DNA of 64,000 bases, taken from positions 46,601 to 110,600 of the forward strand of contig CAWJAN010000006.1 of NCBI GenBank assembly GCA_963840885.1. Reading direction: 5' to 3'. Every line of letters starts with the position of its first letter. Position 1 is the stretch's first letter. Shown here piece after piece: positions 1,945 to 51,603 of the stretch. Source of the stretch: an uncultured bacterium. Its GTDB lineage: Bacteria > Patescibacteriota > Minisyncoccia > Phycocordibacterales > GWA1-40-21. The notes beneath the pieces were generated by a model that saw only the letters and a program-made list of their open reading frames with translations, did not search any database and was not told the DNA's origin. The position numbers were made by a program, and so were the translations under genes.

Positions 1945-4900
1945 TTAATTTCCAGAATCCGTGCTTGATGCTGTCGTATCTGTCGATGTTGCATCCGATG
2001 ATGAGTCTGCCGTATCGGTTGATGTCGCATCCGACGATGTCGCCGTATCATCGGTAGATGTCGCAAGTGATGCATCATTTGAAGACGTATCCGAAGTCGA
2101 GGTTGATACGATCGAATCATCCGTACTTGTCGAAGCATCGTCTGAAGAAGTAGTTGAAGTTGAAGTGGATGTCGCTATAGTATCGCTGCTTGATGTGCTT
2201 GTGGTTGTTGTACTTGCATCGTCGGTGCTTGATGCATCAGACGACTGAATTTCCGTAGTATCGCTTGCTACTGAATCGGATGATGAAATTTGGATCGAAC
2301 TGGTTGATTGCAATTGGCAGGCGCCGACCACATTCGTAAGTATGCCATTGCTTATTATGATGCAATACGGCTGGCCAGTAATCTGATCATACATGGTAAT
2401 TCCTTCCGGACTCTGGCTCGTGCCAATCGCGATTCCGGTAAGATGCGCTAAGCCGTCTCCCACCGAAGATATAAACGATCCGATTTCCTTGACTGCATTG
2501 ACGAGTGCAGCAATGATTGGTCTGTCAGCAAGAGTGAGATATCCTCTGGAATCAGTTGCCACTGCTTCGGGTATTACTGATTGAACATTTTGTGCAGAAA
2601 AGCCGGTGTATTGATTTGTCATATCAAGGCCGCTTATGGCATTCCAATGATAGTTGATAGGAGTAAGTCCCTTAACCGCATCTAAGCCAAGAGTGAAATC
2701 ACCATCAATATTTTTCAATCGTTCATCGGAAGAAACTGTAACATTACCTAAAGAATCGGTTATGAGCGTTGCTCCGGCACTGCCTAAGGAAGAAAATTGC
2801 AAAGTTCCGGAAACTGTAAGTAAAGCCGACGGAGTTGAAGTGCCTAGGCCGACATTGCCATAAGTAATCAGTCCTGTATCTAAACTGAATACTCCATTAT
2901 CCAAAGTAATGCTTTTTGTTATGGAAGATGTGGCGGCTGGCGGAGTAAACATCCCGCTTGACGTAAACGTATGAACTGTATAAGCGCCATCATGAGTAAT
3001 GGTTCCTCCGGTTCCGTCTCCGCTCACTGGAGTCAAATATCTGATGATTACGACGCCAGAGCCTCCGGCTCCGCCGGTTCCATTCGCAGCCGCTCCTCCT
3101 CCGCCTCCGCCTCCTGTATTTGTGGTTGCATCGCTTCCGCTTGAAGCTCCTACATAACCTCCGGCTCCGCCTCCGCCATTTCCGCCGTCGCCTGCAGGGC
3201 TTGGACCGCCGTCATATCCGCCTCCTCCTCCGCCGCCGCCATAATATGTAGGGGTTCCTGAAATTGAACTTGATGTTCCGACTCCTCCTGCGGGATCATT
3301 TGAACCGGTGCTATCAGTTCCGGCTGCTCCGGCTCCTCCTCCTCCCGATCCTTGGGGATTGCCTCCTGGATTATCTCCTCCTTTATTTCCCTGGCCAGCG
3401 GTTCCCGCAGAACCTGTTCCTCCGGAACCGGCTTCACCTCCTCCAGAACCTCCGGTATTTCCTGAACCTCCATAACTGCCTCCGGCTCCTCCGCCAATTG
3501 CTGTAATGCTTAGAATTGAAGAATCATCTCCATTGTTTCCTGGACTGCCTCCATCACCGACGGTAATGGTCTGAGAGCCGACTATGTCAGTTGTCGTAGA
3601 GACGACTCCTCCCGCTCCTCCTCCGCCTCCGCCGTTTGATCCTCCACCTCCGCCTCCGGCAACCGCGAGAATATCAAATGATGAAATGAGTGATGAACTT
3701 GCAATTCCCGACAATCCTAAAGAAGAATTTGAAACGATATCGCCTGATGCATAAACATTTCCAGCAACATCAAGAGCTTCGGAAGGAGTTGAGGTTCCAA
3801 TTCCTACATTTCCAAGATCATAATAGATATCTGAGCTTGTTGAAGTCCACTGTGATGATCCGCCGCTTGACGTTGTCGCTACTACATTTCCGTTTGAATC
3901 GACAGCGAGCAAGGTGTTTGAGAGCCCTGAAATATTTAAAGATGGAGTTACTATTCCAGAATCAAAATTAAATAAACTACTAGATGATGTTAATGAAATA
4001 TACTTAGTATTAACAGCAGAACCTGCAGGCGCCACAAAAGTCCCGCTTGACGTAAACGTATGAACTGTATAAGCGCCATCATGAGTAATGGTTCCTCCGG
4101 TTCCGTCTCCGCTCACTGGAGTCAAATATCTGATGATTACGACGCCAGAGCCTCCGGCTCCGCCGGTTCCATTCGCAGCCGCTCCTCCTCCGCCTCCGCC
4201 TCCTGTATTTGTGGTTGCATCGCTTCCGCTTGAAGCTCCTACATAACCTCCGGCTCCGCCTCCGCCATTTCCGCCGTCGCCTGCAGGGCTTGGACCGCCG
4301 TCATATCCGCCTCCTCCTCCGCCGCCGCCATAATATGTAGGGGTTCCTGAAATTGAACTTGATGTTCCGACTCCTCCTGCGGGATCATTTGAACCGGTGC
4401 TATCAGTTCCGGCTGCTCCGGCTCCTCCTCCTCCCGATCCTTGGGGATTGCCTCCTGGATTATCTCCTCCTTTATTTCCCTGGCCAGCGGTTCCCGCAGA
4501 ACCTGTTCCTCCGGAACCGGCTTCACCTCCTCCAGAACCTCCGGTATTTCCTGAACCTCCATAACTGCCTCCGGCTCCTCCGCCAATTGCTGTAATGCTT
4601 AGAATTGAAGAATCATCTCCATTGTTTCCTGGACTGCCTCCATCACCGACGGTAATGGTCTGAGAGCCGACTATGTCAGTTGTCGTAGAGACGACTCCTC
4701 CCGCTCCTCCTCCGCCTCCGCCGTTTGATCCTCCACCTCCGCCTCCGGCAACGACAAGCACATCCACTTGAACAGATGATTGGCTTAGTTTTAAAAATTG
4801 ATCGGAAAATACCGGCATTCCATTCTTATAAAAATCTGCTGCATTAACAATGCCGTTTACATCAAGAGGATATGCTGGAGTTGAAGTTCCTACACCCACT

Positions 4901-7900
4901 GAACCATCTGATGAAACATAGAGTACAGATTGGCTTGAGGAAGAAACGAAGTTGGCAATGGCTCCTCCGTCTATAGCGTCAATTTCAAATTGAGCGGTTG
5001 GTATAGTCGTTCCTAATCCAATGTGTCCGTCCCCTCCTATAAAAAATAATGACTGACTCGATGATGAAACAAAATTGGCAATGTTATTGCTATCCTTTCC
5101 ATCGATTTCAAACATGCCGATGGGATTCATAGTGCCTATGCCGAAATTTCCCAATAAATATGATGAGGAAGATGAAGTGACCGCAAGAGAACCGTTCGTA
5201 GTAAAACCAATCGAATTAAAGAAATCATTGCCGAGATCGATAACGGTAATATCATTACTACCAAAAGCGCCAACGTATGCGTGATTGCCGAATACTGCGA
5301 GACCCTGTGGAGCAGCTCCGGCTCCTACCGAGTCAAGGGTAATTGGATTTGTAGAAGATGATATATCAACTACAGACATGGTTCCTGATTCAGCATTAAC
5401 TAAATAAGCATAATTGCCTGAGACAGAGATATCCTGAGGATTAATATCAACAGTAGTTGTGGCTATCTGTATTGGATTGGAGGAAGATGAGATGTCAAAA
5501 ACTGCCATTTGGCCTAATGTGGAATGGCTATCAATATACTGATACGACGTGTACAAATACGAACCTGATACAACCATGCAGCTAGGATTGGAACCTGCGG
5601 GAGTTGTGGTTGTGGCAACGAGTACCGGATTACTAGAAGATGAAATATCAAATGTAGAAATAGAATCTGGAATAGTGCCGCTGCCCAAGTTTCCCCAGTT
5701 AGCTTCATATAAATAATTATTGTCAGCAGACATGGCAAGACCGAAAGCCTGATTTCCCCCGTCTGAAACTTTGGTTATGAATACGGGATTTGTGCCGGAT
5801 GTGATATCAAAAACTGAAACGCTGCTGACTGTGGAATCCGATTCTGGAGGATTCTCTTGATTCGAAATATACAAGTAGGAATGGTTATTCTCTTTCTTTA
5901 TGACCATTTTTTGAGAATATCCGCCCTGTGTGCTAAAAGTCGTAATTGATTTTGGAGATTTTGGAGAAGATATGTCAATAACACTTACGGTGGAATCTCC
6001 GCTGTTAAGTACATATAAATAATTATTGATGACTTGTATATCTTGGGGAAAACTTCCAACGGCGATAGCGGCGACCTCAACGGGAGATGCTGTATTTGAG
6101 TTATCAAAAATAGATACGCTGCCTCCTTCATTGTTTGTCGCATATAAATACTTACCGTAAACCGTTACATCAGTAGGACCGGCCCAATATTCATAAAGAA
6201 AATTCTCGATGCCTGGCGTATTGCCTTCATCGTATACTATCGAGGTGCTTGCGGTATAAACCGCATGATTGGAGAAATTAGGATCATCGACAACCACTCT
6301 ATAGCCGTCAACACCGGAAACTGCATTCCAGGATACGTCGATTGCATATGGACCGCTTGAAGTGCTGGTAAATGGTATATCAACATAATTTTGGGAAGGA
6401 ACTTTTATGCCATTGATGAGCTTATAGCCATAAACTTTGAAATCATAATCTCCAATATACGTTAAGGTTCCCGTAGCTTCATCATCGAGAGCGTCACCGA
6501 TTCCTGTTGGGCTTGGAACAATATATGCTGTGCCGCCTTGTGCAGTACCTATATCAGCTGGCGACAAAGATGAGTAGTTGATTCCGGTAATATAATTGGA
6601 TATAGATCCTGAAATGGTTAAGCTTGCATCGGGTGTGGAAGTACCGATTCCGACATTGCCGACAGAGTAATAAATATTTGAGCTTGTTGAAGTCCACTGG
6701 GAGGATCCGCTCGGGGCTGTTGTTGCTGTCACATTTCCATTTGCGTCCACCGCAAGAAAAGTATTGGAAAGATTTGAAATATTCAAACCTTGTGTGGTTG
6801 AGGTACCAACAACCGATAGTGCAGTTGCAGGAGTTGTTGTACCTATGCCTAAATTTCCTGCAAAATATGAAATTGTATTTGTTCCTGAAACGGATATTGC
6901 GCCGTTTGAAAGTATTCCTCCAGACCCGACTGAAAGAGTTGTTCCTACATTCAAGAAATCCTGGATATTAATTCCCCTGCTTACATTTACAGTTCCAGCC
7001 TCAATCGAACCGGCTTCAAGACCTTCTGCTGTAATGCCGCCGATGTCTACAACTGATATGGAACCTGCCGCAAAAGTATCTGAATTGAATTCGCTATTGG
7101 CAGAATATACATAATTTCCTGAAACGGCGACGCCTTGGCACCAAGTGCTGGTTTTTATGTTTCCAATAAGGTATGGGGACAGCGGATTGGAAATATTTAT
7201 GACTGATATGGAATTATCTTGCTGATTTGCAGTGTAGGCATAATCTCCGGAAACTGTGATATCTATAGGTGCAGCGCCGGAACCAACTGTCGTAGTGGCA
7301 ACAGGGAAAGGAGCATACGGATTTGAAATATCTACGACAGACATGGAATCGCCTTGGAAATTTGCCACGTATGCATAGCTGCCGGAAACAGAAATACTTG
7401 TCGGGACATATCCCACAGTCGTAGTGGCAATTTCCACCGGAGAATGAGGATTTGAAATATCCACTACTGAAATGGTGGTGCCGCGCACGCCGGTCAAATC
7501 GCCGCCGTTTGTAACATACGCATAGTTGCCGGAAATTGCTATGCCGGCAGGGCCGAATCCTACTGTCGTAGTAGCAATAATCGATGGAGCATAAGGATTT
7601 GAAATATCAAATACAGAAATAGTATTTCCATCGCCACTTAAGCCGCCGTCGGTCACGTATGCGTAGTGTCCGGAAATTGCTATGCCTGCCGGATATGTTC
7701 CGTATACCGATGATGTTGCAATAAGCTTTGGATCTGATGGATTGGCGACATCCATGACAGAGATATCGTGATCAAATTCACCATTATTTACTACATAAAC
7801 ATAGTGTCCTGATTTTGCGAGGCCTATAGATGAGGCGCCACCTACTGTCGTAGTAGCAATCTGCCGAGGAGCGGCAGGATTTGAAATGTCGACGACAGCG

Positions 7901-10686
7901 AATGGATTGGCTCCGGGTTCAAGTGGATTCGTACCTGGATCACCATTTGCGCGATTATCATAATTGCTCGAAACATAAGCATAATGACCGTCTATAATAA
8001 TATTTTGCGGATATAATCCGACAGATGTGGTTGCAATCTGAGAAATGTGATTAAAATCGCTATAGCTTGAGATTGCTCCGTTTACGGTCAGGACATTTTC
8101 CGGAGTCGTGGTGCCGATGCCGACATTTCCGCTTGAAGCTATGTACAAAGCGGAACGGCTGGAAGGCGATATAAAATTAGCAATATCGCTTGTCGATGAA
8201 CCGAAAACCTCCAAGCTAGCAGGCTGATTTATGGCGCTTGTATTTACAGACATGAAATTATTGTTCGGGCCAATGGCTGCAAAATAGTTTCCGCCGAAAG
8301 CTATGGCGTTCAACGGCGTAGATTCTGTAAAACTTTTTGTTGTCCAATCATTGCCATTTAAAGATTCACCGAATTCTTCGGGATTTCCGACTGCTATAAA
8401 CGTGCCGTTGCCATATGCAATGGAACTCCAAGAATCAATTGTAGGTGAATTGCCTAGAGACCAATTTATTCCGTCAGAAGAAGTGGCAAACCTGTTATGG
8501 CCTAAGGAATCGCTTCCTATAAGAATAAACATATTGTTGCCATAAACAATGGCCGTTCCACTGTTCATGGGTGATGGCACGTTTTCTGCAGTCCAGTTTA
8601 TTCCATCTGAAGACTCAATCGTATGCGAGTTATTGTTAGTTCCGACAAAAATTCCATTTGCATAAATGAAAGATGACCAGTTGGCTGCTGATGTTGGAAG
8701 ACTGCTTGTGGCCCAGTTAATACCGTCCGAAGAAGTGGCGAATTGATCGCCGCCCAGGGCGACAAACATGCCGTTGCCGTATGCAATTTGCCAAGCCCAA
8801 GTAAAATACGACGGATGCGGAGGCGGCATAGTTCCGCCAGTCCAGCTTATACCATCAGAAGAAACCGCTACATGATCACCGTTTGTACCAGCAGCTATAA
8901 ATTTACCATTCCCGTATATTAACGTTTCCCAATAATCTGATTCCGGCATGGTTCCTGATGTCCAATTTATTCCGTCGGAAGAGATTGCCAAATTGCTGCC
9001 ATTGCCGGTCGCTACAAATTTGCCATTTCCGTAGGCAATAGCGAGCCAATCGCTATTGGAGACAGGGAGAGTTCCCGTAGCAAGATTGCTTCCTTCAATA
9101 GGCTCGTGAGAATTGCCTGCTTTCACTCCGCCGGAATCATAATAAATATTCGAGCCTGAGGTCGTCCACTGTGAAAGAGACGAGCTTGCGGTAAAAACAT
9201 TCCCATTTGAATCCACACTAAGTAAGCCGCTTGAAATACCGGGAAGGGTTAATCCGAATAATGTGGTTGTTCCGGTAACGGATAGTGCTGACTCAGGTGT
9301 TGTAGTGCCGATACCTATGCGGCCGTCAGCGCCAATATAGAATACTGAAGCGGATGTCGATGAGAAAAAACTGGCGATTGTGCTTGTTCCTTGCCCGAAT
9401 ACCTGGAATGTATATGCGCCAGATGATGTTGTGGTGGATGTTGTGGTAGTGGAAATCCTTACAACAGAAATATCGCTGTCATCATCATTTGCGGTATAGG
9501 CATAATCGCCGGAAATAGCGATATCGAGCGGAAAACTGCCTACTGAAACTGTCGCACTCACTGATGGAGATGAAGGGCTGGAAATATCCAAGACTGAAAT
9601 CGTATCATCGCTACCATTCACAAGATAGGCATGCGTGCCGGAAATAGCAATGCCGCGGGGATGATTTCCAACGTTCACATCGGCAATATCGCTCGGCGAA
9701 AGCGGATTTGATATATTGATGACAGAAATCGCATCACTATTAACATCGGCTACATAGGCATAATTGCCGGAAATCGCTATGCCGTATGGGCTAGATCCCC
9801 CAGGAAGCACTGCTGTAGTGACCTCAACCGGAGCAAGCGGATTTGAAATATCTACAACGGAAACATCATCATCATCGGAGTTGGTCACATAGGCATAGTT
9901 GCCGGAAACAGCAACATCAAGAGGTGAACCGCCGACCGAAGTCGTAGCAACTTGAATTGGAGCAAGCGGATTTGAAATATCTATAACAGACATTATACTA
10001 TCGGACTCATCAGCAATATAAGCGTAATTACCGGATATTGCGATGCCTAGAGCCGTATCATAATTATTCGGATCATTACCAACAGTCGTCGTAGCGACTT
10101 GGACAGGAGCTGAAGGATTTGAAACATCAATGACAGAAAGATTGCTTGCGCCATTTGTAACATATGCATAGTTGCCGGAAACTGCGACATAGTATGAGTA
10201 ATCACCTGAATCACCTACGCTCGTCGTGGCTGTCTCGATTGGAGAGAGAGGATTTGAAACATCAAAAATGGAAAATACCGCATTGCAATTATCGGCAACA
10301 TAAACATGGTCACCTGAAGCCGCAATCCCCCATGGGCATGCATTGCCATTGTCTGTCTGAGCCGTGGTGTTTTCAACAGGAGACGCAATATAATCTACTG
10401 TCGTGGTAGAGCCGGTAGTAAAAAATGAATTCGTCGATGTGCCGACAGCAAAGTTTCCTACATTGAAAAGATTCTGATTATTTAAATCGATTGTAGATGT
10501 AGCTCCTGTAAAAGGTATAAATGTGGAAAAAAGGCTCACGCCGCAGTTCGATGTTCCCATCACGCAATCCGGATTCAGCGTTTCACCAGGAGTATAAACC
10601 GAAGCAGAAGCAAAAGTAAAAAATGCAAATATGAAATATATTGCAAATAATACAGAAGAAGTGAATTTTCTAAAGGAAATATTCAT
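1945..10686 (-). CDS. Giant secreted repeat protein of 2913 aa. It contains several blocks of LVIVD-type beta-propeller repeats, tail-fibre-like 'NVGIGTSTP' repeats and a duplicated Gly-rich module. A C-terminal intramolecular-chaperone/autoprocessing domain (peptidase S74-like) is followed by an S/T/D-rich tail.
   Basis: ORF track with an N-terminal signal peptide. Recurring LVIVD signature YAYV(A/T)...SVxDISNPxxPxxxATTxVG appears more than 20 times. 'LAVDxNGNVxATTxxSGSSQWTSTSSNIYYxxGNVGIGTSTP' appears at least three times. The C-terminal segment SDERLKNIDGDFTLGLD..INYHWN..TGFSAQNVQSVIPEAV..PIIAALVNAVKEI matches the endosialidase/tailspike chaperone-domain consensus (SDxRLKxNI...Y.W...GfiAQEV..V.PE.V...ALv.AiKEL). 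Confidence 0.9.
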   Translation of the reverse strand: MNISFRKFTSSVLFAIYFIFAFFTFASASVYTPGETLNPDCVMGTSNCGVSLFSTFIPFTGATSTIDLNNQNLFNVGNFAVGTSTNSFFTTGSTTTVDYIASPVENTTAQTDNGNACPWGIAASGDHVYVADNCNAVFSIFDVSNPLSPIETATTSVGDSGDYSYYVAVSGNYAYVTNGASNLSVIDVSNPSAPVQVATTTVGNDPNNYDTALGIAISGNYAYIADESDSIMSVIDISNPLAPIQVATTSVGGSPLDVAVSGNYAYVTNSDDDDVSVVDISNPLAPVEVTTAVLPGGSSPYGIAISGNYAYVADVNSDAISVINISNPLSPSDIADVNVGNHPRGIAISGTHAYLVNGSDDTISVLDISSPSSPSVSATVSVGSFPLDIAISGDYAYTANDDDSDISVVRISTTTTSTTTSSGAYTFQVFGQGTSTIASFFSSTSASVFYIGADGRIGIGTTTPESALSVTGTTTLFGLTLPGISSGLLSVDSNGNVFTASSSLSQWTTSGSNIYYDSGGVKAGNSHEPIEGSNLATGTLPVSNSDWLAIAYGNGKFVATGNGSNLAISSDGINWTSGTMPESDYWETLIYGNGKFIAAGTNGDHVAVSSDGISWTGGTMPPPHPSYFTWAWQIAYGNGMFVALGGDQFATSSDGINWATSSLPTSAANWSSFIYANGIFVGTNNNSHTIESSDGINWTAENVPSPMNSGTAIVYGNNMFILIGSDSLGHNRFATSSDGINWSLGNSPTIDSWSSIAYGNGTFIAVGNPEEFGESLNGNDWTTKSFTESTPLNAIAFGGNYFAAIGPNNNFMSVNTSAINQPASLEVFGSSTSDIANFISPSSRSALYIASSGNVGIGTTTPENVLTVNGAISSYSDFNHISQIATTSVGLYPQNIIIDGHYAYVSSNYDNRANGDPGTNPLEPGANPFAVVDISNPAAPRQIATTTVGGASSIGLAKSGHYVYVVNNGEFDHDISVMDVANPSDPKLIATSSVYGTYPAGIAISGHYAYVTDGGLSGDGNTISVFDISNPYAPSIIATTTVGFGPAGIAISGNYAYVTNGGDLTGVRGTTISVVDISNPHSPVEIATTTVGYVPTSISVSGSYAYVANFQGDSMSVVDISNPYAPFPVATTTVGSGAAPIDITVSGDYAYTANQQDNSISVINISNPLSPYLIGNIKTSTWCQGVAVSGNYVYSANSEFNSDTFAAGSISVVDIGGITAEGLEAGSIEAGTVNVSRGINIQDFLNVGTTLSVGSGGILSNGAISVSGTNTISYFAGNLGIGTTTPATALSVVGTSTTQGLNISNLSNTFLAVDANGNVTATTAPSGSSQWTSTSSNIYYSVGNVGIGTSTPDASLTISGSISNYITGINYSSLSPADIGTAQGGTAYIVPSPTGIGDALDDEATGTLTYIGDYDFKVYGYKLINGIKVPSQNYVDIPFTSTSSGPYAIDVSWNAVSGVDGYRVVVDDPNFSNHAVYTASTSIVYDEGNTPGIENFLYEYWAGPTDVTVYGKYLYATNNEGGSVSIFDNSNTASPVEVAAIAVGSFPQDIQVINNYLYVLNSGDSTVSVIDISSPKSPKSITTFSTQGGYSQKMVIKKENNHSYLYISNQENPPESDSTVSSVSVFDITSGTNPVFITKVSDGGNQAFGLAMSADNNYLYEANWGNLGSGTIPDSISTFDISSSSNPVLVATTTTPAGSNPSCMVVSGSYLYTSYQYIDSHSTLGQMAVFDISSSSNPIQIATTTVDINPQDISVSGNYAYLVNAESGTMSVVDISSSTNPITLDSVGAGAAPQGLAVFGNHAYVGAFGSNDITVIDLGNDFFNSIGFTTNGSLAVTSSSSSYLLGNFGIGTMNPIGMFEIDGKDSNNIANFVSSSSQSLFFIGGDGHIGLGTTIPTAQFEIDAIDGGAIANFVSSSSQSVLYVSSDGSVGVGTSTPAYPLDVNGIVNAADFYKNGMPVFSDQFLKLSQSSVQVDVLVVAGGGGGGSNGGGGGGAGGVVSTTTDIVGSQTITVGDGGSPGNNGDDSSILSITAIGGGAGGSYGGSGNTGGSGGGEAGSGGTGSAGTAGQGNKGGDNPGGNPQGSGGGGAGAAGTDSTGSNDPAGGVGTSSSISGTPTYYGGGGGGGGYDGGPSPAGDGGNGGGGAGGYVGASSGSDATTNTGGGGGGGAAANGTGGAGGSGVVIIRYLTPVSGDGTGGTITHDGAYTVHTFTSSGTFVAPAGSAVNTKYISLTSSSSLFNFDSGIVTPSLNISGLSNTLLAVDSNGNVVATTSSGGSSQWTSTSSDIYYDLGNVGIGTSTPSEALDVAGNVYASGDIVSNSSLGLSGIASSSLISSFDILAVAGGGGGGSNGGGGGGAGGVVSTTTDIVGSQTITVGDGGSPGNNGDDSSILSITAIGGGAGGSYGGSGNTGGSGGGEAGSGGTGSAGTAGQGNKGGDNPGGNPQGSGGGGAGAAGTDSTGSNDPAGGVGTSSSISGTPTYYGGGGGGGGYDGGPSPAGDGGNGGGGAGGYVGASSGSDATTNTGGGGGGGAAANGTGGAGGSGVVIIRYLTPVSGDGTGGTITHDGAYTVHTFTSSGMFTPPAATSSITKSITLDNGVFSLDTGLITYGNVGLGTSTPSALLTVSGTLQFSSLGSAGATLITDSLGNVTVSSDERLKNIDGDFTLGLDAVKGLTPINYHWNAISGLDMTNQYTGFSAQNVQSVIPEAVATDSRGYLTLADRPIIAALVNAVKEIGSFISSVGDGLAHLTGIAIGTSQSPEGITMYDQITGQPYCIIISNGILTNVVGACQLQSTSSIQISSSDSVASDTTEIQSSDASSTDDASTTTTSTSSSDTIATSTSTSTTSSDDASTSTDDSIVSTSTSDTSSNDASLATSTDDTATSSDATSTDTADSSSDATSTDTTASSTDSGN
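2941..4763. repeat. Tandem direct duplication inside the giant gene. The period is 1089 bp, and about 734 bp are nucleotide-identical (2941..3674 and 4030..4763).
   Basis: Identical sequence blocks are visible, for example ggttcctccggttccgtctccgctcactggagtcaaatatctgatgattacgacgcc at 2999 and 4088. Two byte-identical spurious plus-strand ORFs sit at 3150..3497 and 4239..4586, offset by 1089 bp. The encoded identical segment is about 245 aa, running from AGGGGGGSNGG to GVVIIRYLTPVSGDGTGGTITHDGAYTVHTFTSSG. Confidence 0.9.
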
Positions 10687-10762: not shown

Positions 10763-13700
10763 TTACACCACCAAATTCTCATTCACAATCCCTCCTTTCA
10801 GGTCTACAACGGGAGATTTGAAGGCTTCCGTGTAAGATTCATCATCGTTCTTCCTATCGATCTTCAGATAGTATCTTCCTTGGGGGAGAAGGATGTAATA
10901 TCTGCCGTATTTGTCTGCGATTTTCTTGGCGATAGGAGAATCATCCTGGCCTTCCCTGTAGATCTTGATTACTGCAAATGAGAGCGGCAGGCCTGTTTTG
11001 GAATCCTTGATCGTTCCAGCTTTCTTCGTCCTGAAGACGACATAGTTCAGGAGATACGCGATGACATAGAGGCCGGCAACGATGAGGTTGTAAGGCGCTG
11101 GAGCGAAGATGAGGGCGATGAGCGCGACGAAAGCGCCGATGACGAAGAGCAGATCATATATCCTTGACCAGATTACTGTGGAACCTTTGGTGAAAGTATT
11201 CATGTTTGCCCTGTTCTTGGCGAACTCGTTCCAGTCGAATTTCAAAGGATCCATCGGGATATTCTTGGTGATGATTTCTCCGAGAGATCCGATGACGAGC
11301 TCTTCTCCGTGATAGAGGTCGTTGTAAACGTCGTCGAATGTGCCGAGAATCTTCTTTGACGGGAAAGAATAGTTGGTCTTCTGGGCCATGATCCTGTACT
11401 TGCCGGGCATTACGAGGAATCCGTATCTGCCGTCGAGGTCCGTGATTGCGGTGGCTGCGGTTTTGTTGGTCGCGATATCGATGAGCGTCACGTAAGCCGG
11501 ATCGAGAGGACGCTTCGTTACGGAATCATATACTGTTCCCCATTTTCTCTGCTTTTTCTTCAGGCCTAAGGATTCGGATAGCAAGCCGAAGAATCTTGCC
11601 GGTATGGTCCAGGTTTCAGACCAGGTCAGGGGGTTAACGAAAAGAAGCGCGGCTGAATATGCGATGCCTCCGATGACAAGGCCGACGGTCGAGATTACTT
11701 TGACCACTATGGAACCGACAGGATCGTTTACGGTAGAGCTTGCCATTCTGATTATTGGATTTAATGTATCCGATATTCCCTTGATGGCATTGTTGAAAGA
11801 TTGAGAATTCGATACTGGTGCCGTTGGTGCGGGAGTTGGAGTCGGAGTTGGCGCAGGTGCTGGAGTTGGCAAAGGTGTTGGCACAGGAGTTGGCAAAGGT
11901 GTTGGCGTAGGGGTTGGTGTCGGAGGTTCAGGAGGAACGACTGGAAGAGGTTCGGTCTGGCATCCGAGGATGTCATTGGCTTTCTTCCTTGAATAGTATC
12001 CGAAGTTTCCTGTTCCGCTTGAAAGTCCGTATGGAGAGAGGATGTCGCTTGCATATGCGTTCTGGAAATTGGTGACTGAATCTGCAGTTACTGTTCCGTA
12101 ATATTCCATCTCGGAACCTAGTGTTTCCGGACCGCTTGTGGCCTGATCGAATCCGTTGGTGTTCAGGAATATCTGGAGATCCTTAACGTCAGGATCAGAT
12201 GTTCCCGGCATGAGGTTCTTGGTGAAGCAGAATCCTTTAGGCAATGTCGGAGGGATGATTACTGGAGGGGTTGAGGTTGCAGGCGTGGTTGTTGCGGGGG
12301 TGGTGGTTGGAACGATAGGAGGTTCGGTTGAACCGCCGGATGGGCCTGTATATGGAGGCAAAACCGGTGTAGGCAGAGTCGTGGTTGCTCTTCTTCCGTG
12401 TGGACGATGGGGAAACAGCCAGTTGACGTCTGAGCCTCCGTCTACACAGCCGTTAGTGCAGTCGAAGGCGTCAGCGGAAAGATTGGTTGAGCCTGAGACA
12501 TCTAAAAATGAAAATGAAGATGTGCCTGAACCGGTTTGCAGTATATTGAAAGGAACTATAGCTGGTGGAGAAAACTTTTGAACATCGCCGCCATTATGCC
12601 CGTAGTCGGCAACATATATATTGTTATTCGAATCAACCGTTAATTGCGTAGGATTGGAAAATTGTCCATCGCTAGTCGTGCCGAATGTGCCGAATTGGCT
12701 AATCAATGAAAGATCCGAATCAAGCTTAACGACATTATGATTGCCTGAATCGGATACATATAAATATCCGTTTGAATCTACGGCTACGCCGTATGGTGAG
12801 CTGACATCTGTATATGAAGAAACGTAAGAAAGGTCGGATACATTAAATTTTACGATTCGATTATGCCCAGTATCGGCAAGATAAATAAAAGTTCCCGCCG
12901 GATCAACGGCGAGCGAACCGCTAGTCGAATTAAAGCTGAAACCTTGGCTGTTGGCGGAAGTGGTTGATGCAATAAGGTTAAAATTTGAATCCAATTTCAA
13001 TATTCCGCCGGTTGGGCCGTAATTGCTGGTGACATATATATTGCCGGATGAATCAACGGCAATGCCTCCGGAAATACCGGTGCTCTGAACTGATGGAATC
13101 GTAGTGATATCCGGGGAAGATATCAAAAAATTACCGCTGGGATCAAATTCCATAATTTTATTACTCGATCCGTTCGCTACGTACAAATTATCCGAAATAT
13201 CAGTGGATAATTGCACCGGATCAGAAAGCGAACTTGTCGCAATGGTGTTTATCAAATTGCCGGAACTGTCGAATTCTTTTATATAATTTCCAAAATAATC
13301 CGAAACATAGATATTATCTGCCGAATCATGGGCTACTCCAAAGGTTAAGCTAAGCGATGATAACAATTCGCTATTAAATTGAGGAATGGAAGCCCCTCCA
13401 GTATTTATTGAAAGAAGATTGCCAGAGCTTCCGGACAGAGAAATGCTGCCGGATATGGTTGTCGTGGCAGTCTGATCGAATAAAAGCGATGAGCCCGATG
13501 ATGAAAACTTGGTCAAATTAGGAAATGTGTTTGAACCGGAAATGGTTTGGGAGGATGTTCCTGTAAAATTAACCGTGCCTGAAGAGCTTGCGCTCGTATC
13601 TTCAAGTATTCCGCCTGTATTCGACCAATTGCCATAAACATTCAGTATATATCCGTTTAAATCAAGAGTTCCTCCGTCTACTAAAACAAGACTGCGAATA

Positions 13701-15079
13701 TTTTCATCCTGATAAAGTGTGACTGTTCCGGTGCTTATCGTCGCATCACTCGTCTCATCTGTCGATGTCGATATAAAATTTATTGCTCCCCCACCTGTTA
13801 TAAGCGTTCCGCCGGTGTTTATAAAATTCCACCAATGGCCGCTAAAATTTAATGTGTAAGATGACAGGTCTAGCGTTCCTCCGGATGCCAAAATAAGGCT
13901 ATTAACATTTTGATCTTGGGTCAGGTCGATAGTCCCAGTATTTATAGTTGCGCTGTCGGAAGATCCAGGAAAATCAATGCCTTCAACGGGAACATACCCT
14001 GATGGAAGCACGAGTCCGTTATAGGTGGTCGAAGCGGTGCCGTCCGGATTAACGACGGTTATATTATTGTTATGAGCATCGGTAACATAAATATATCCTG
14101 ATGTCGTGAGAGCCATACCAAAAGGCTGAGAAAATCCGAATGAAGAATAAGTTGTCGAAGCGGTGCCGTCCGGATTGTAGACCACGATACGATGCGATCC
14201 ATTGGATTCCAATGCGTATATATCTCCCGATGAGGAGAGTGCCACGTTTTCAGGGACGAAAAGTCCGCTGCCGTTATAGCTTGTCGAAGCGGTGCCGTCC
14301 GGATTTAAGATATCAATGCGGTTATTCGAAGCATCGGCAACATATATTTCTCCTGAAGGCGAAAAAGTTATGCCGAAAGGATATATCGGAGCCAGGCTTC
14401 CTCCGTCATAGCTTGTGGATGCTGTGCCGTCCGGATTTAAGATGACAATTCTGTTATTGCCTTCATCGGATACATAAATATCTCCGGATGGGGAAACTAT
14501 TACGTATCTAATATTGCTAAAAGGGGCCAGGCTTCCGCCGTTATAGCTTGTCGAAGCGGTGCCGTCCGGATTTAGGACAACGATTCTATTATTTGAAGCG
14601 TCTACTATGTACATTTCTCCTGACGGTGAGAGATTTATTCCTACGGGACCGATTGGAGCCAAGCTTCCGCCGTTATAGCTTGTGGATGCTGTGCCGTCCT
14701 GGTTCAGGACTACTATTCTATTATGTCCGTTATCAGCTATGTATATTTCTCCAGAGGTAGATGAAATCGCCAAATTATAAGGAGCGCTAAAACCAATTAA
14801 TCCTCCGTTTGTTCCCCAGGTAGTGGTGCTATTCCAGTCACCGCCTGAGCTTGTGTTGAAGGCGGTTGAAAAATTATTGCTGGAATTTGAAACGAATATC
14901 TTTTTAAAATTTTCGTTAGAAAATAAAAAAACTGCTGAAATTATTAAAATTATGAGTAGGAATATTGAAATAAATCCTGCTGGTTTCGCCTTTATTTCTG
15001 TAAATTTCATTTGGTGGATTAGGATTATTATTGCTACGGTGTTTATTATAATAGATTTTATAATAAAGACACTAATCAC
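10763..15079 (-). CDS. Large secreted surface protein of 1438 aa. It has two blocks of NHL-type beta-propeller repeats, a PT-rich linker and a putative peptidoglycan-binding-like segment. The conserved C-terminal multi-TM anchor module is shared with the 250..1941 product.
   Basis: NHL repeat signature SPSGE(I/M)Y(I/V)(A/S)DxxNNRIV(V/I)LNPDGTASTSY appears at least six times, and a second block reads IYVSDYFGNYIKEFDSSGN / LYVADTGHNRIVKF / LYVSDSGNHNVVKL. The linker is PTPTPTPTPLPTPVPTPLPTPAPAPTPTPTP. 'DVKDLQIFLNTNGF...YYGTVTADSVTNFQNAYASDIL' resembles a PG_binding_1 domain. The C-terminal module aligns with the 563-aa protein. Confidence 0.9.
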   Translation of the reverse strand: MISVFIIKSIIINTVAIIILIHQMKFTEIKAKPAGFISIFLLIILIISAVFLFSNENFKKIFVSNSSNNFSTAFNTSSGGDWNSTTTWGTNGGLIGFSAPYNLAISSTSGEIYIADNGHNRIVVLNQDGTASTSYNGGSLAPIGPVGINLSPSGEMYIVDASNNRIVVLNPDGTASTSYNGGSLAPFSNIRYVIVSPSGDIYVSDEGNNRIVILNPDGTASTSYDGGSLAPIYPFGITFSPSGEIYVADASNNRIDILNPDGTASTSYNGSGLFVPENVALSSSGDIYALESNGSHRIVVYNPDGTASTTYSSFGFSQPFGMALTTSGYIYVTDAHNNNITVVNPDGTASTTYNGLVLPSGYVPVEGIDFPGSSDSATINTGTIDLTQDQNVNSLILASGGTLDLSSYTLNFSGHWWNFINTGGTLITGGGAINFISTSTDETSDATISTGTVTLYQDENIRSLVLVDGGTLDLNGYILNVYGNWSNTGGILEDTSASSSGTVNFTGTSSQTISGSNTFPNLTKFSSSGSSLLFDQTATTTISGSISLSGSSGNLLSINTGGASIPQFNSELLSSLSLTFGVAHDSADNIYVSDYFGNYIKEFDSSGNLINTIATSSLSDPVQLSTDISDNLYVANGSSNKIMEFDPSGNFLISSPDITTIPSVQSTGISGGIAVDSSGNIYVTSNYGPTGGILKLDSNFNLIASTTSANSQGFSFNSTSGSLAVDPAGTFIYLADTGHNRIVKFNVSDLSYVSSYTDVSSPYGVAVDSNGYLYVSDSGNHNVVKLDSDLSLISQFGTFGTTSDGQFSNPTQLTVDSNNNIYVADYGHNGGDVQKFSPPAIVPFNILQTGSGTSSFSFLDVSGSTNLSADAFDCTNGCVDGGSDVNWLFPHRPHGRRATTTLPTPVLPPYTGPSGGSTEPPIVPTTTPATTTPATSTPPVIIPPTLPKGFCFTKNLMPGTSDPDVKDLQIFLNTNGFDQATSGPETLGSEMEYYGTVTADSVTNFQNAYASDILSPYGLSSGTGNFGYYSRKKANDILGCQTEPLPVVPPEPPTPTPTPTPLPTPVPTPLPTPAPAPTPTPTPAPTAPVSNSQSFNNAIKGISDTLNPIIRMASSTVNDPVGSIVVKVISTVGLVIGGIAYSAALLFVNPLTWSETWTIPARFFGLLSESLGLKKKQRKWGTVYDSVTKRPLDPAYVTLIDIATNKTAATAITDLDGRYGFLVMPGKYRIMAQKTNYSFPSKKILGTFDDVYNDLYHGEELVIGSLGEIITKNIPMDPLKFDWNEFAKNRANMNTFTKGSTVIWSRIYDLLFVIGAFVALIALIFAPAPYNLIVAGLYVIAYLLNYVVFRTKKAGTIKDSKTGLPLSFAVIKIYREGQDDSPIAKKIADKYGRYYILLPQGRYYLKIDRKNDDESYTEAFKSPVVDLKGGIVNENLVV

Positions 15080-24443: not shown

Positions 24444-24454
24444 AACCAAAACAA

Positions 24455-24488
24455 AGAGCCGCGCCTGAAAGGCGCGGCTCTTTGTTTT
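24455..24488. terminator. Rho-independent terminator, bidirectional.
   Basis: agagccgcgcc-tgaaa-ggcgcggctct followed by TTGTTTT. It lies between convergent genes. Confidence 0.6.
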
Positions 24489-24508
24489 GGGCGAATAATA
24501 TTATCAGA

Positions 24509-31865: not shown

Positions 31866-31954
31866 CATGCATGCCTGCAGAACTATGGCCGAAAAAGGAG
31901 ATTGTGCGACTTCAAAAGCGCCCAGTTGGGCGCTTTTAAATTTAATAACAAAAA

Positions 31955-32957: not shown

Positions 32958-34598
32958 TTATTCTTCTTTGGAAAACTCACAAACTAAAGAAACAACCAGT
33001 ACGAGTATGATAGCTGAAAGCAATACTGTAAGCCATGAGACAGTTACTCCTTCTGGTGTAATCCCTGTATTAGGGAGATTCGGTGTGTTAACAAGAACGT
33101 TAGCAAAAGCAAAGGCTACCGCCGATAAACCATTTGCATCTCCTTTGACCGTAGCAATATTATCTGTTGAAACATTAATGTTTGTTTTACAGGTATATGT
33201 CCATATTTCATTTGAATCAAGTAATTTATTTCCATTGTTATCACCGGAAATAAATGTTATTGCTGCACATTTATTATCAGTAAGTGAAACATTGTGAATT
33301 GGAACTGTTCCTGAATTAATTACTGTATATTTATAAGTAACATCACCACCTCCAAAAGTAAACGGTGTTAACTGATTAGGAACTACTACGAGATTAATGA
33401 GTGGTGGCTGTATTGAACTTCCAACTACTACAGTGGCTATCGCAGTAGCAATCGCTGTATGATAATAAGCATCATCGCTATGACCAGTTGCTATGGCAGT
33501 ATTTGTAGTAGTGCTAGTAAGTGTTGTTGAACAAGTATATTTCCAATTTTCTCCGGGATCAAGCTTCTTATCACCGTTCAAATCACCAGAAGAATAAACG
33601 ACGGGAATACATTTATCATCAACAACCGTAACATCAACTAATGCCTGCTGTCCACCAACATTCCAAACATTGTAATTATATGTGACTTTTCCAGATCCAG
33701 CTGATAAAGCTAAAGGACTAGGAACTTTTGTAATTCCAATTAATGGAATTATTGATACTACACCCGGTCTATGTCCTTTAGCAGTAACAACAACCGGTGC
33801 ATTAGATAGTGAAATTGTGTTGCTAATAAGTGTAACTGCGGTTTGTGCCAATGCTCTTCCATTTAATGTCGCACCTGCTCGCATCGCAATATCCGTTTGA
33901 GCTAAAATGATACCTTGCATTTGTGAACCGGCTAAAAGATTTACTGTTCCTGCAACCTGCCAGAAAACATTCTTGGCTTGAGCGCCTCCGCTTAATATGA
34001 TTTTTTTACCGACTGCAAGATCAAGTGTCCCTGATATTTGGAAAACCCAAACATCATTTGCTCCACCTGAAAGTGTGACGTCATTTGTTATTGTTACATT
34101 ACTGCCCCAGGTATAAACACCGGGAGCAAGTGTCATAGTTCCTACTGTTCCGGCACCAATATTTAAATTTGGACCAACTCCAGCTGGTGTTGCTGGTGCT
34201 GAAGCATTGGTATATGCGATTCCCATATCTGAAACAGCATTATCAACTAAAGTTTTGTTTGCTCCAGGTCCAGGCATTACACAAGTATTATCAAAACTTC
34301 CTCCGGGACCACCTGCAAATGTAGCTAATGCATCAACTGTATAAATTGAACCAGTAATTTCTCCGCAAGTAACGCCAATTTGCGCACCACTACCAGCACT
34401 ATTACCAATATTTCCGGTAATAATCGAAGTCGGTACATCAGTAATTCCTGTTTCACCAAGAATTACAAAATTATTCGTATCTATTGATCCCAAATTTATT
34501 GGTGCTGGACCAGCAGCAAATGCAGCAACAGGACCAATAAAACCAATGACTAGAGAAACAATTATCGTTGATATTGAACTCTGACTAAATTTTTTCAT
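32958..34598 (-). CDS. LPXTG-anchored surface protein. It has an N-terminal ice-binding-like beta-helix domain (DUF3494), two DUF11-like Ig-fold repeats and a C-terminal LPNTG sorting signal.
   Basis: After the signal peptide, AAGPAPINLGSIDTNNFVILGETGITDVPTSIITGNIGNSAG and ...NDVWVFQISGTLDLAVGKKIILSGGAQAKNVFWQVAGTVNLLAGSQMQGIILAQT...GRALAQTAVTL match DUF3494. Two repeats read GxVTYxYxVxNxG...VxDxKC...SGDxNGxxxLDxxExWxYTC. The C-terminus LPNTG is followed by a hydrophobic helix and a short charged tail. Confidence 0.85.
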   Translation of the reverse strand: MKKFSQSSISTIIVSLVIGFIGPVAAFAAGPAPINLGSIDTNNFVILGETGITDVPTSIITGNIGNSAGSGAQIGVTCGEITGSIYTVDALATFAGGPGGSFDNTCVMPGPGANKTLVDNAVSDMGIAYTNASAPATPAGVGPNLNIGAGTVGTMTLAPGVYTWGSNVTITNDVTLSGGANDVWVFQISGTLDLAVGKKIILSGGAQAKNVFWQVAGTVNLLAGSQMQGIILAQTDIAMRAGATLNGRALAQTAVTLISNTISLSNAPVVVTAKGHRPGVVSIIPLIGITKVPSPLALSAGSGKVTYNYNVWNVGGQQALVDVTVVDDKCIPVVYSSGDLNGDKKLDPGENWKYTCSTTLTSTTTNTAIATGHSDDAYYHTAIATAIATVVVGSSIQPPLINLVVVPNQLTPFTFGGGDVTYKYTVINSGTVPIHNVSLTDNKCAAITFISGDNNGNKLLDSNEIWTYTCKTNINVSTDNIATVKGDANGLSAVAFAFANVLVNTPNLPNTGITPEGVTVSWLTVLLSAIILVLVVSLVCEFSKEE

Positions 34599-34840
34599 AT
34601 TTTATTTATTGTTAATTTATAATTATTATTAATTTATTTTCAAACTTACTTAATATATTCTAGTTGAAATTTGACGATTATTTTTATATTTATGTATTTT
34701 ATTCGACCAAAAGTAGATATTTAGATGCTTTTTGAATAGAATCGCGATTGATTCATCAGCAATACCTGCACATAGTGTATCAATAATATGAATTTACTAC
34801 TAATATAGATATGTTTACAAGATATTATTTATATTTAAAA

Positions 34841-35298
34841 GTCGCACAATCTCCTTTTTCGGCCATAGTTCTGCAGGGATGACATTGATAGTCTCTGGGA
34901 AGAAAGACAAGAGCAAATAGAAATTGAAGAACTTGATGCAAATGGAGAGAATCTTGAAGTTGATGAGGGACTAGAGGTGTGTCTTTGTGATATAGATAAA
35001 GATGCTTGCCCATTACATAATATGGAAGAAAATGAAGAATAAATCACAAAAACAATGCGATGATTTACTCACTCCCATAATAAAGAAGTTGTTTCCTAAA
35101 TGTTTGCTTTGTGGTGGTGAAACGCAGGTGGCACACCATCACTGCCATAAAAGTAAAAGTTTAGTTCTTCGGTATGATTTAAAAAATTTAATTCCGCTTT
35201 GTAATAGTTGTCATTTCAAACTTCATTTTAATGAAAGTTTCTGGGCATCAAAGATAGTTCAGTCGCACAATCTCCTTTTTCGGCCATAGTTCTGCAGG
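34841..35298. mobile_element. Small cassette bounded by perfect 37-bp direct repeats (gtcgcacaatctcctttttcggccatagttctgcagg at 34841..34877 and 35262..35298). It carries an HNH nuclease ORF.
   Basis: Both copies were read directly from the sequence, with 421-bp spacing. The flanking sequence differs. The cassette sits in an intergenic island between the LPXTG protein gene and ppa. Confidence 0.4.
35032..35289 (+). CDS. Small freestanding HNH endonuclease. The start used here is the second Met; the ORF track begins at 35002.
   Basis: MKNKSQKQCDDLLTPIIKKLFPKCLLCGGETQVAHHHCHKSKSLVLRYDLKNLIPLCNSCHFKLH. The CxxC...HH...N...CxxCH pattern is an HNH/zinc-finger nuclease motif. The last nine codons read into the right-hand direct repeat. 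Confidence 0.6.
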   Translation: MKNKSQKQCDDLLTPIIKKLFPKCLLCGGETQVAHHHCHKSKSLVLRYDLKNLIPLCNSCHFKLHFNESFWASKIVQSHNLLFRP

Positions 35299-51425: not shown

Positions 51426-51485
51426 TTTCTTTAGCTAAGGAAAATCAAAAAACCGCCAGTGGCGGTTTTTTGATTTTAAGCACTT

Positions 51486-51543
51486 CCCTGCCCGCACATT
51501 TTAAAAACCCCTAAAAAGGGGTTTTTAAAATGTGCGGGCAGGG
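51486..51543. terminator. Long perfect palindrome (ccctgcccgcacattttaaaaacccc / ggggtttttaaaatgtgcgggcaggg). It overlaps the 3' acceptor strand of tRNA-Gly(GCC) and lies downstream of hup, so it is likely a bidirectional terminator.
   Basis: Read directly from the sequence. It shares the CACATTTTAAAAA core with the element at 19960..20004. Confidence 0.5.
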
Positions 51544-51603
51544 AGAATCGGACTCCCATCTAATCCTTGGCAAGGACTCATTCTACCACTAAACTATGCC
51601 CGC
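51533..51603 (-). tRNA. tRNA-Gly (anticodon GCC).
   Basis: The reverse complement is GCGGGCA TA GTTTAGTGGTAGAAT G AGTCC TTGCCAA GGATT AGAT GGGAGTCCGATTCTCCC TGCCCGC A. Confidence 0.85.

Follow-up and report, generated by a model that had tools for sequence, protein, structure and literature searches.

How has one gene come to hold two stretches of 712 base pairs (bp) that match at every position, inside domains whose edges have clearly drifted apart? The gene in question is a giant open reading frame (ORF) of 2913 amino acids (aa) in a 64-kb stretch of DNA from an uncultured, Patescibacteria-like bacterium (contig CAWJAN010000006.1, positions 46,601 to 110,600; the whole stretch is called the window below, and its first letter is position 1), and each of the two stretches lies within a domain of the Gly_rich_2 family (PF21722). 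We think that this pattern is probably best explained by a recent gene conversion, within the gene, between two old tandem copies of the domain. The initial annotation of the locus had placed the repeat inside the giant gene, and this is indeed the case, as both copies fall in the ORF at 1945-10686; that the gene is read from the minus strand had been left unstated.

The 712-bp tract and the domains around it

The exact direct repeat joins 2952-3663 to 4041-4752 at an offset of 1089 bp (exact comparison and self-blastn, 712/712). This offset is 363 codons, so that both copies are in frame, each made of 237 whole codons and one base. Perfect blocks of 734 bp had been reported before; a long perfect repeat does exist at the 1089-bp offset, but its exact run is 712 bp, since a comparison of 2941-3674 with 4030-4763 shows 11 mismatches in 734 positions, every one of them at the block ends. 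In blocks of 50 nucleotides (nt) directly beyond its ends, only 12-48% of positions match at the 1089-bp offset, which is the chance level. No other long perfect repeat is present in the window (the runner-up in the self-blastn is a match of 188 bp at 79%), and the repeat is therefore far beyond chance, which is excluded as its origin.

Both copies belong to recognisable members of PF21722: the Pfam scan gave 117.6 bits (E 1.1e-33) over two stretches, for a gathering cut-off of 24.3 bits, and a family profile built without the giant protein scored 200.5 bits for domain 1 and 192.1 bits for domain 2. This profile aligns the two domains in register and passes the tract by about 11 residues before it and 9-10 residues after it in both. 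In these outer, in-domain positions only 6 of 20 residues are identical between the copies, versus 237 of 237 inside the tract; the first and last strands read FDILAV and MFTPPAATS in domain 2, VDVLVV and TFVAPAGSAV in domain 1. An AlphaFold model of aa 1960-2230 (pLDDT 90.7, pTM 0.89) has folded strands from aa 1972 to 2218, and the strands at aa 1972-1979 and 2215-2218 are the first and last of the fold in the proximal copy, which places the tract inside the fold.

The rest of the repeat unit, about 355 bp, had been described as diverged, and this is partly right. The flanks of the tract are homologous but old: those on the N-side share 47% of their residues (52% of their nucleotides) over 53 aligned residues, those on the C-side 34% over 32 residues, and neither score was reached in 1000 shuffles. 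The spacer between the tracts is another matter, being unique, without an identical second copy anywhere in the window (self-blastn). Its core, at 3785-3940, shares 73% nt identity with an old paralogue at 6632-6787 (repeat family D7); the linker encoded there between the modules (LAVDSNGNVVATT...GNVGIGTSTP) is matched, at 73% identity, by a paralogous linker at aa ~1300-1352 of the giant protein. The giant gene is a mosaic in which linker units have been used again.

A conversion tract is expected to show full identity up to sharp limits, in register, with homologous but older sequence on both sides, and this is the pattern found here. A fresh tandem duplication was considered and rejected, because the identity would then extend over the whole period, spacer included, and this is not seen (712 bp of identity for a period of 1089 bp, and a single spacer). 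When the locus was first described, "very recent duplication or gene conversion" had been left side by side; the diverged in-register edges favour the latter, whereas the pattern of a simple tandem duplication is lacking. The in-register, diverged domain edges, together with the old homologous flanks, indicate that two Gly_rich_2 domains flanked the spacer before the exchange. We propose that the starting arrangement was two old tandem Gly_rich_2 modules followed by a Peptidase_S74 chaperone of the kind that trimerises and cleaves itself. A recent non-reciprocal homologous exchange would then have copied 712 bp of one module onto the other, in register, erasing every difference within the tract while the outermost strands and the 377-bp linker stayed diverged.

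Relatives of the domain allow this proposal to be placed in a wider frame. Among 8,000 candidates scored, more than 3,700 proteins match at E <= 0.001, many of them with several copies, and several named homologues come from Patescibacteria. The 120 best homologues usually carry two to six copies each, and their 194 within-protein pairs have a median identity of 58% (overall range 40-81%, maximum 81%, none at 90% or more), a sample that may be biased, as short-read assemblies break at perfect repeats. Gly_rich_2 copies also precede S74 in proteins P0009, P0075 and P0073, which have one, two or three of them, and the number of modules therefore varies across the family. Four related loci (L017, L018, L019 and L020) were compared at the DNA level. 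In L018, an ENA metagenome contig encoding P0022, two domains that are about 74% identical over most of their length share a perfect tract of 203 bp with sharp edges (2459-2661 and 3287-3489), to all appearances a clear parallel conversion mosaic in an unrelated metagenomic gene, which suggests that conversion between Gly_rich_2 copies within a gene is not unique to the window. L017 has an exact run of 52 bp in copies that are 79% identical, and no long exact tract was found between the domain copies of L019 and L020. The near-complete homogenisation in the giant gene is the extreme case.

The same loci show something of the neighbourhoods in which these genes occur. In L020 (1-8613), three adjacent genes carry Gly_rich_2, two of them also S74, and over 365 nt the 5' regions of two of the three have 88% identity. 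In L019 (1-330), an S74 domain is found in the 5329-aa product of the neighbouring gene. Fibre genes of this kind thus occur in clusters more than once. A further metagenome contig of high GC content, L007, was dropped as a parallel, its largest ORF having GNVGIGTSTP-type linker motifs and no detectable Gly_rich_2; the query match covers the DIYYDLGNVGIGTSTP linker motif. This contig has a direct repeat of its own, of 1.1 kb (2886-3982 and 5526-6620, 98.5% identity, offset 2640 bp).

How the identity may have arisen

Several points weigh against the conversion that we favour. The perfect identity and the copy number both rest on one metagenome-derived assembly. The donor copy and the state before conversion are not reconstructable, because no orthologue was found: scans of genomes and metagenome contigs with the C-terminal 871-aa segment gave short matches only (37-70% identity), and the protein-database search returned no close relative of the giant protein and no variant. 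A clear conversion tract was present in only one of the four related loci compared at the DNA level. The copies before conversion may have been too diverged for a classical RecA-dependent exchange, which leaves the initiating homology unexplained. Finally, function, trimerisation and cleavage are argued from homology and from a predicted fold.

We consider it unlikely, although it is the main rival reading, that the identity is an effect of assembly, near-identical modules having been merged by bubble-popping or polishing, or more than two (module plus spacer) units having been collapsed to the minimal path. The contig is metagenome-assembled and the protein a singleton, a 712-bp exact repeat exceeds typical short reads, and the minimal path through a graph of the form A-R-B-R-C is the same for any number of (R-B) units; moreover, a Logan short-read assembly from the same population (run ERR12036782) that includes neighbouring genes breaks, in a 3.7-kb contig, inside another internal repeat. 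The caution voiced in the initial annotation, that assemblies may misreport the copy number at the tract, is a valid one. However, the unique spacer joins domain edges in frame and in register, and at least two copies must therefore exist; merging could hide only a few per cent of divergence, so that a recent homogenisation would stand in any case; and the same mosaic is seen in an independent assembly, that of L018. We give rather little credence to a recent duplicative insertion, by illegitimate recombination or template switching, of a 712-bp copy of the module into a linker that had no second domain before. As the protein is a mosaic of GxVGIGTSTP linkers, the homology around the tract could be generic, and there is no orthologue to show the ancestral state; but both breakpoints would have to land in register beside pre-existing, diverged FDILAV and MFTPPAATS strands, both of which align to the family profile, and the terminal strands of the proximal-copy model (aa 1972-1979 and 2215-2218) argue that the residues flanking the tract belong to the fold. 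Had the duplication been a classical tandem one, the spacer too would have been copied.

Programmed variation, that is, identity maintained by cassette-like recombination or by a diversity-generating retroelement acting on the heads, we find very hard to believe. Recombination is a frequent source of variation in the surface proteins of host-dependent bacteria, and conversion tracts do recur in this family; against this, the copies have no mismatch at all and hence no adenine-specific pattern between a template and a variable repeat, the window holds only two Gly_rich_2 copies and no silent cassettes, and the variable repeats of diversity-generating retroelements are far shorter than the tract. 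A retroelement pair was rejected on the 0 differences in 712 bp, with no systematic search of the window's ORFs for a reverse transcriptase. Intragenic conversion between two old domains thus seems to us the reading that best accommodates the diverged edges, the single spacer and the parallel case.

The giant gene and its surroundings

From its N-terminus, the giant protein is made of a predicted signal peptide, three LVIVD beta-propeller blocks, a "SSDGINW" repeat block, nine GxVGIGTSTP-type linkers, two Gly_rich_2 domains, a Peptidase_S74 domain and a Ser/Thr/Asp-rich tail (Pfam and motif scan); the coordinates are collected in Table 1. In phage fibres, S74 folds the trimer and then cleaves itself at the serine of its SDxRxK motif. 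Here the S-D-x-R-x-K motif, as SDERLK (aa 2653-2658), opens the domain, and the C-terminal 211 aa match tail-fibre C-terminal families of PHROG with E down to 1.4e-11. Within the tail, at 1971-2039, Tandem Repeats Finder reports a tandem repeat of 36 nt. In a public protein collection the identical protein forms a singleton cluster and is placed on an NCBI/ENA contig of 210,238 bp. The gene probably encodes a giant secreted fibre or adhesin of a Patescibacteria-like bacterium, a proposition that forms part of the same joint explanation as the conversion. Two overlapping ORFs of 115 aa, at 3150-3497 and 4239-4586, were set aside as by-products of the glycine-codon-rich repeat.

Table 1. Features of the giant gene and of its internal repeat (positions in the window)
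Feature	Position	Strand	Extent and basis
Giant ORF, 2913 aa	1945..10686	-	ORF list, translation, Pfam scan, motif scan
Predicted N-terminal signal peptide (MNISFRKFTSSVLFAIYFIFAFFTFASA)	10603..10686	-	Inferred from the translation by eye
Gly_rich_2 (PF21722) domain 1	4012..4785	-	aa 1968-2225; reaches 11 aa before and 10 aa after the tract
Perfect-identity tract, gene-proximal copy	4041..4752	-	aa 1979-2215 plus one base, inside domain 1; exact comparison, self-blastn
Unique spacer, 377 bp	3664..4040	-	aa 2216-2341; C-terminal edge of domain 1, linker with DIYYDLGNVGIGTSTP, N-terminal edge of domain 2
Gly_rich_2 (PF21722) domain 2	2926..3693	-	aa 2332-2587; profile 192.1 bits; tblastn 97.6% over 247 aa
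Perfect-identity tract, gene-distal copy	2952..3663	-	aa 2342-2578 plus one base, inside domain 2; exact comparison, self-blastn
Peptidase_S74 intramolecular chaperone domain	2560..2730	-	aa 2653-2709; Pfam 38.2 bits, cut-off 22
Ser/Thr/Asp-rich low-complexity C-terminal tail	1948..2304	-	aa 2795-2913; S41, T32, D20 of 119 residues

The window is a piece of bacterial chromosome. It encodes RecJ, MurE, RNase Y, the alpha and beta subunits of ATP synthase, the CCA-adding enzyme and PilM, with 11 scattered tRNA genes (an Rfam scan of the window returned tRNAs only), and the named relatives of its ATP synthase beta subunit are Patescibacteria such as Wolfebacteria and Woesebacteria, at about 65-72% identity; the subunit itself has a 100% match on the contig of 210,238 bp. 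On either side of the giant gene, and on its strand, lie genes for two more large secreted proteins: a 563-aa protein with CarboxypepD_reg and a 1438-aa protein that combines NHL repeats with a domain for peptidoglycan binding. The three genes look like one surface-protein cluster and not like a prophage. The C-terminal parts of the two flanking genes have in common a 269-nt segment at 73% identity (497-765 and 11013-11281, family D6), and CarboxypepD_reg-type Pfam matches lie at aa 306-358 of the shorter protein and aa 1181-1243 of the longer. The 1438-aa gene has internal repeats of about 132 bp (14270-14724, 73-79% identity), within which the Logan contig mentioned above stops, at ~14546.

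Other features of the window are recorded here for completeness. A 38-nt element, CCTGCAGAACTATGGCCGAAAAAGGAGATTGTGCGACT, is present in three copies, at 31874-31911 (plus strand), 34840-34877 and 35261-35298 (both minus strand), and two further copies extend to 46-47 nt at 96% identity; the element holds a Shine-Dalgarno-like AAAGGAG and matches no Rfam family. The first copy abuts the 3' end of tRNA-Arg(gcg), and the other two lie upstream of a gene (32958-34598, minus strand) for an ice-binding-like protein of 546 aa, which matches NCBIfam IBP_CFB with E 8.4e-62 and 209 bits, below the cut-off of 400 bits, and also has a DUF11-type repeat. Two near-perfect palindromes (93% identity), of 60 nt at 51485-51544 and 45 nt at 24446-24490, look like bidirectional terminator hairpins; about 12 nt of the former belong to the 3' end of tRNA-Gly(gcc).

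A putative binding head and its known counterparts

What, then, would be exchanged or homogenised at this locus? Glycine makes up 40.5% of the tract, and in an alignment of 25 sequences 34 of the 36 invariant columns are glycine, while the segments between the glycine runs have no consensus; conserved glycine-rich motifs thus alternate with variable segments. The edges of the module are conserved, with LVVAGGGGGG (aligned as LVVAGGGG) near the start and GSGVVIIRY near the end, followed by HTFTSSGTF. The literature on PF21722, Gly_rich_2 or the "glycine-rich domain-containing protein" was of little help, as only plant papers matched, and no sequence-level match was found among PDB chains for either the domain profile or the S74 region; matches came from fold comparison alone. 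The best are phage tail proteins: the "tail wing brush" gp33 of mycobacteriophage Bxb1 (9D93; 12.7, 38%), the tail fibre gp24 of cyanophage Pam3 (7YPX; 11.8, 31%) and the tail spike gp29 of Bxb1 (9D93; 7.7, 21%), with the glycine-rich domain of ALK further away (7LRZ; 4.7, 21%). The model is also matched by at least 120 structures predicted for proteins of pelagiphages, cyanophages and algal viruses; it combines a beta-sandwich with a lattice of extended glycine-rich segments (of polyglycine-II or polyproline-II type).

The Pam3 fibre has a TNF-like sandwich and a glycine-rich lattice, with a conserved stem and a variable distal tip, and was compared by its authors with gp38 of Salmonella phage S16 and with ALK; they propose that the distal tip of gp24 recognises the host receptor (PMC9608196). 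Bxb1 gp33 and gp29 have been placed in the same polyproline-II bundle class as S16 gp38 (PMC13243192). Since the module is predicted to fold like the distal, glycine-rich domain of the Pam3 fibre, we think that the module is best read as a putative binding head of phage tail-fibre type and not as a mere length spacer. The initial annotation had supposed that a change in copy number would change the length of the fibre, and this probably misreads the module, whose predicted fold corresponds to the domain proposed to recognise the receptor in Pam3; copy number would alter the number of putative binding heads more than it would alter length.

The present outcome would be two identical putative heads per polypeptide and, if S74 acts as it does in phage fibres and makes a trimer, a mature fibre with six identical heads near its distal end. 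Perfect direct repeats such as these, two tracts of 712 bp at a distance of 377 bp, are a classical substrate for unequal homologous exchange and replication slippage. They could thus sustain the loss or gain of one unit, and as any such event would remove or add exactly 363 codons, the frame would be kept. The suggestion, made with the initial annotation, of a hotspot of copy-number variation is accordingly plausible, judging from these perfect in-frame repeats. Provided that the repeat is real, one recombination event that keeps the frame could change the number or the identity of the putative binding heads on a giant surface fibre, which makes the locus a candidate for surface variation in Patescibacteria. 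One may go further and imagine a host-dependent bacterium with a giant, trimeric, S74-matured fibre whose distal heads, of the phage receptor-binding type, are exchanged by conversion or by loss and gain of 363 codons, thereby tuning avidity or switching host-cell specificity. We regard this fuller picture as speculative and, taken as a whole, doubtful; if true, the exchange of tandem heads would be a cellular counterpart of the evolution of host range in phage tail fibres.

It should be said that the domain family and the process of gene conversion were both known already, and that such conversion is ordinary for repeat-rich surface proteins. More general is the observation that a widespread, uncharacterised domain is predicted to fold like those heads of phage tail fibres for which binding to a host receptor has been proposed; attachment thereby becomes a function that can be tested in thousands of "glycine-rich domain-containing proteins". 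This is the name under which PF21722 proteins appear in Patescibacteria, tailed phages and algal viruses. With them the giant protein has in common the LVVAGGGGGG, GSGVVIIRY and HTFTSSGTF motifs; it differs in that its copies are 100% identical in nucleotides over 712 bp, whereas pairs within the 120 relatives compared do not exceed 81% in amino acids, and in that a linker of about 105 aa separates modules which in many relatives abut.

Concerted evolution, by intragenic conversion and unequal exchange, is known from the wall proteins of staphylococci and streptococci, with their near-identical repeats. The giant gene resembles these in its in-register tract of identity, its sharp edges, its older flanks and its in-frame units, but it has only two units and a linker that is not homogenised, and it belongs to a Patescibacteria-like bacterium with a small genome. 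Compared with Pam3 gp24, Bxb1 gp33 and gp29 or S16 gp38, the gene stands in a bacterial chromosome among housekeeping genes and not in a phage, and its product carries two heads in series. Pam3 uses a separate chaperone, gp25, whereas the giant protein has an intramolecular S74 chaperone downstream of its heads. That domain shares with the S74 of endosialidase tailspikes and phage tail fibres the Pfam match, the S-D-x-R-x-K motif and the PHROG tail-fibre C-terminal families; unlike its phage counterparts, it is followed by a Ser/Thr/Asp-rich tail of 119 aa and is part of a cellular protein of 2913 aa.

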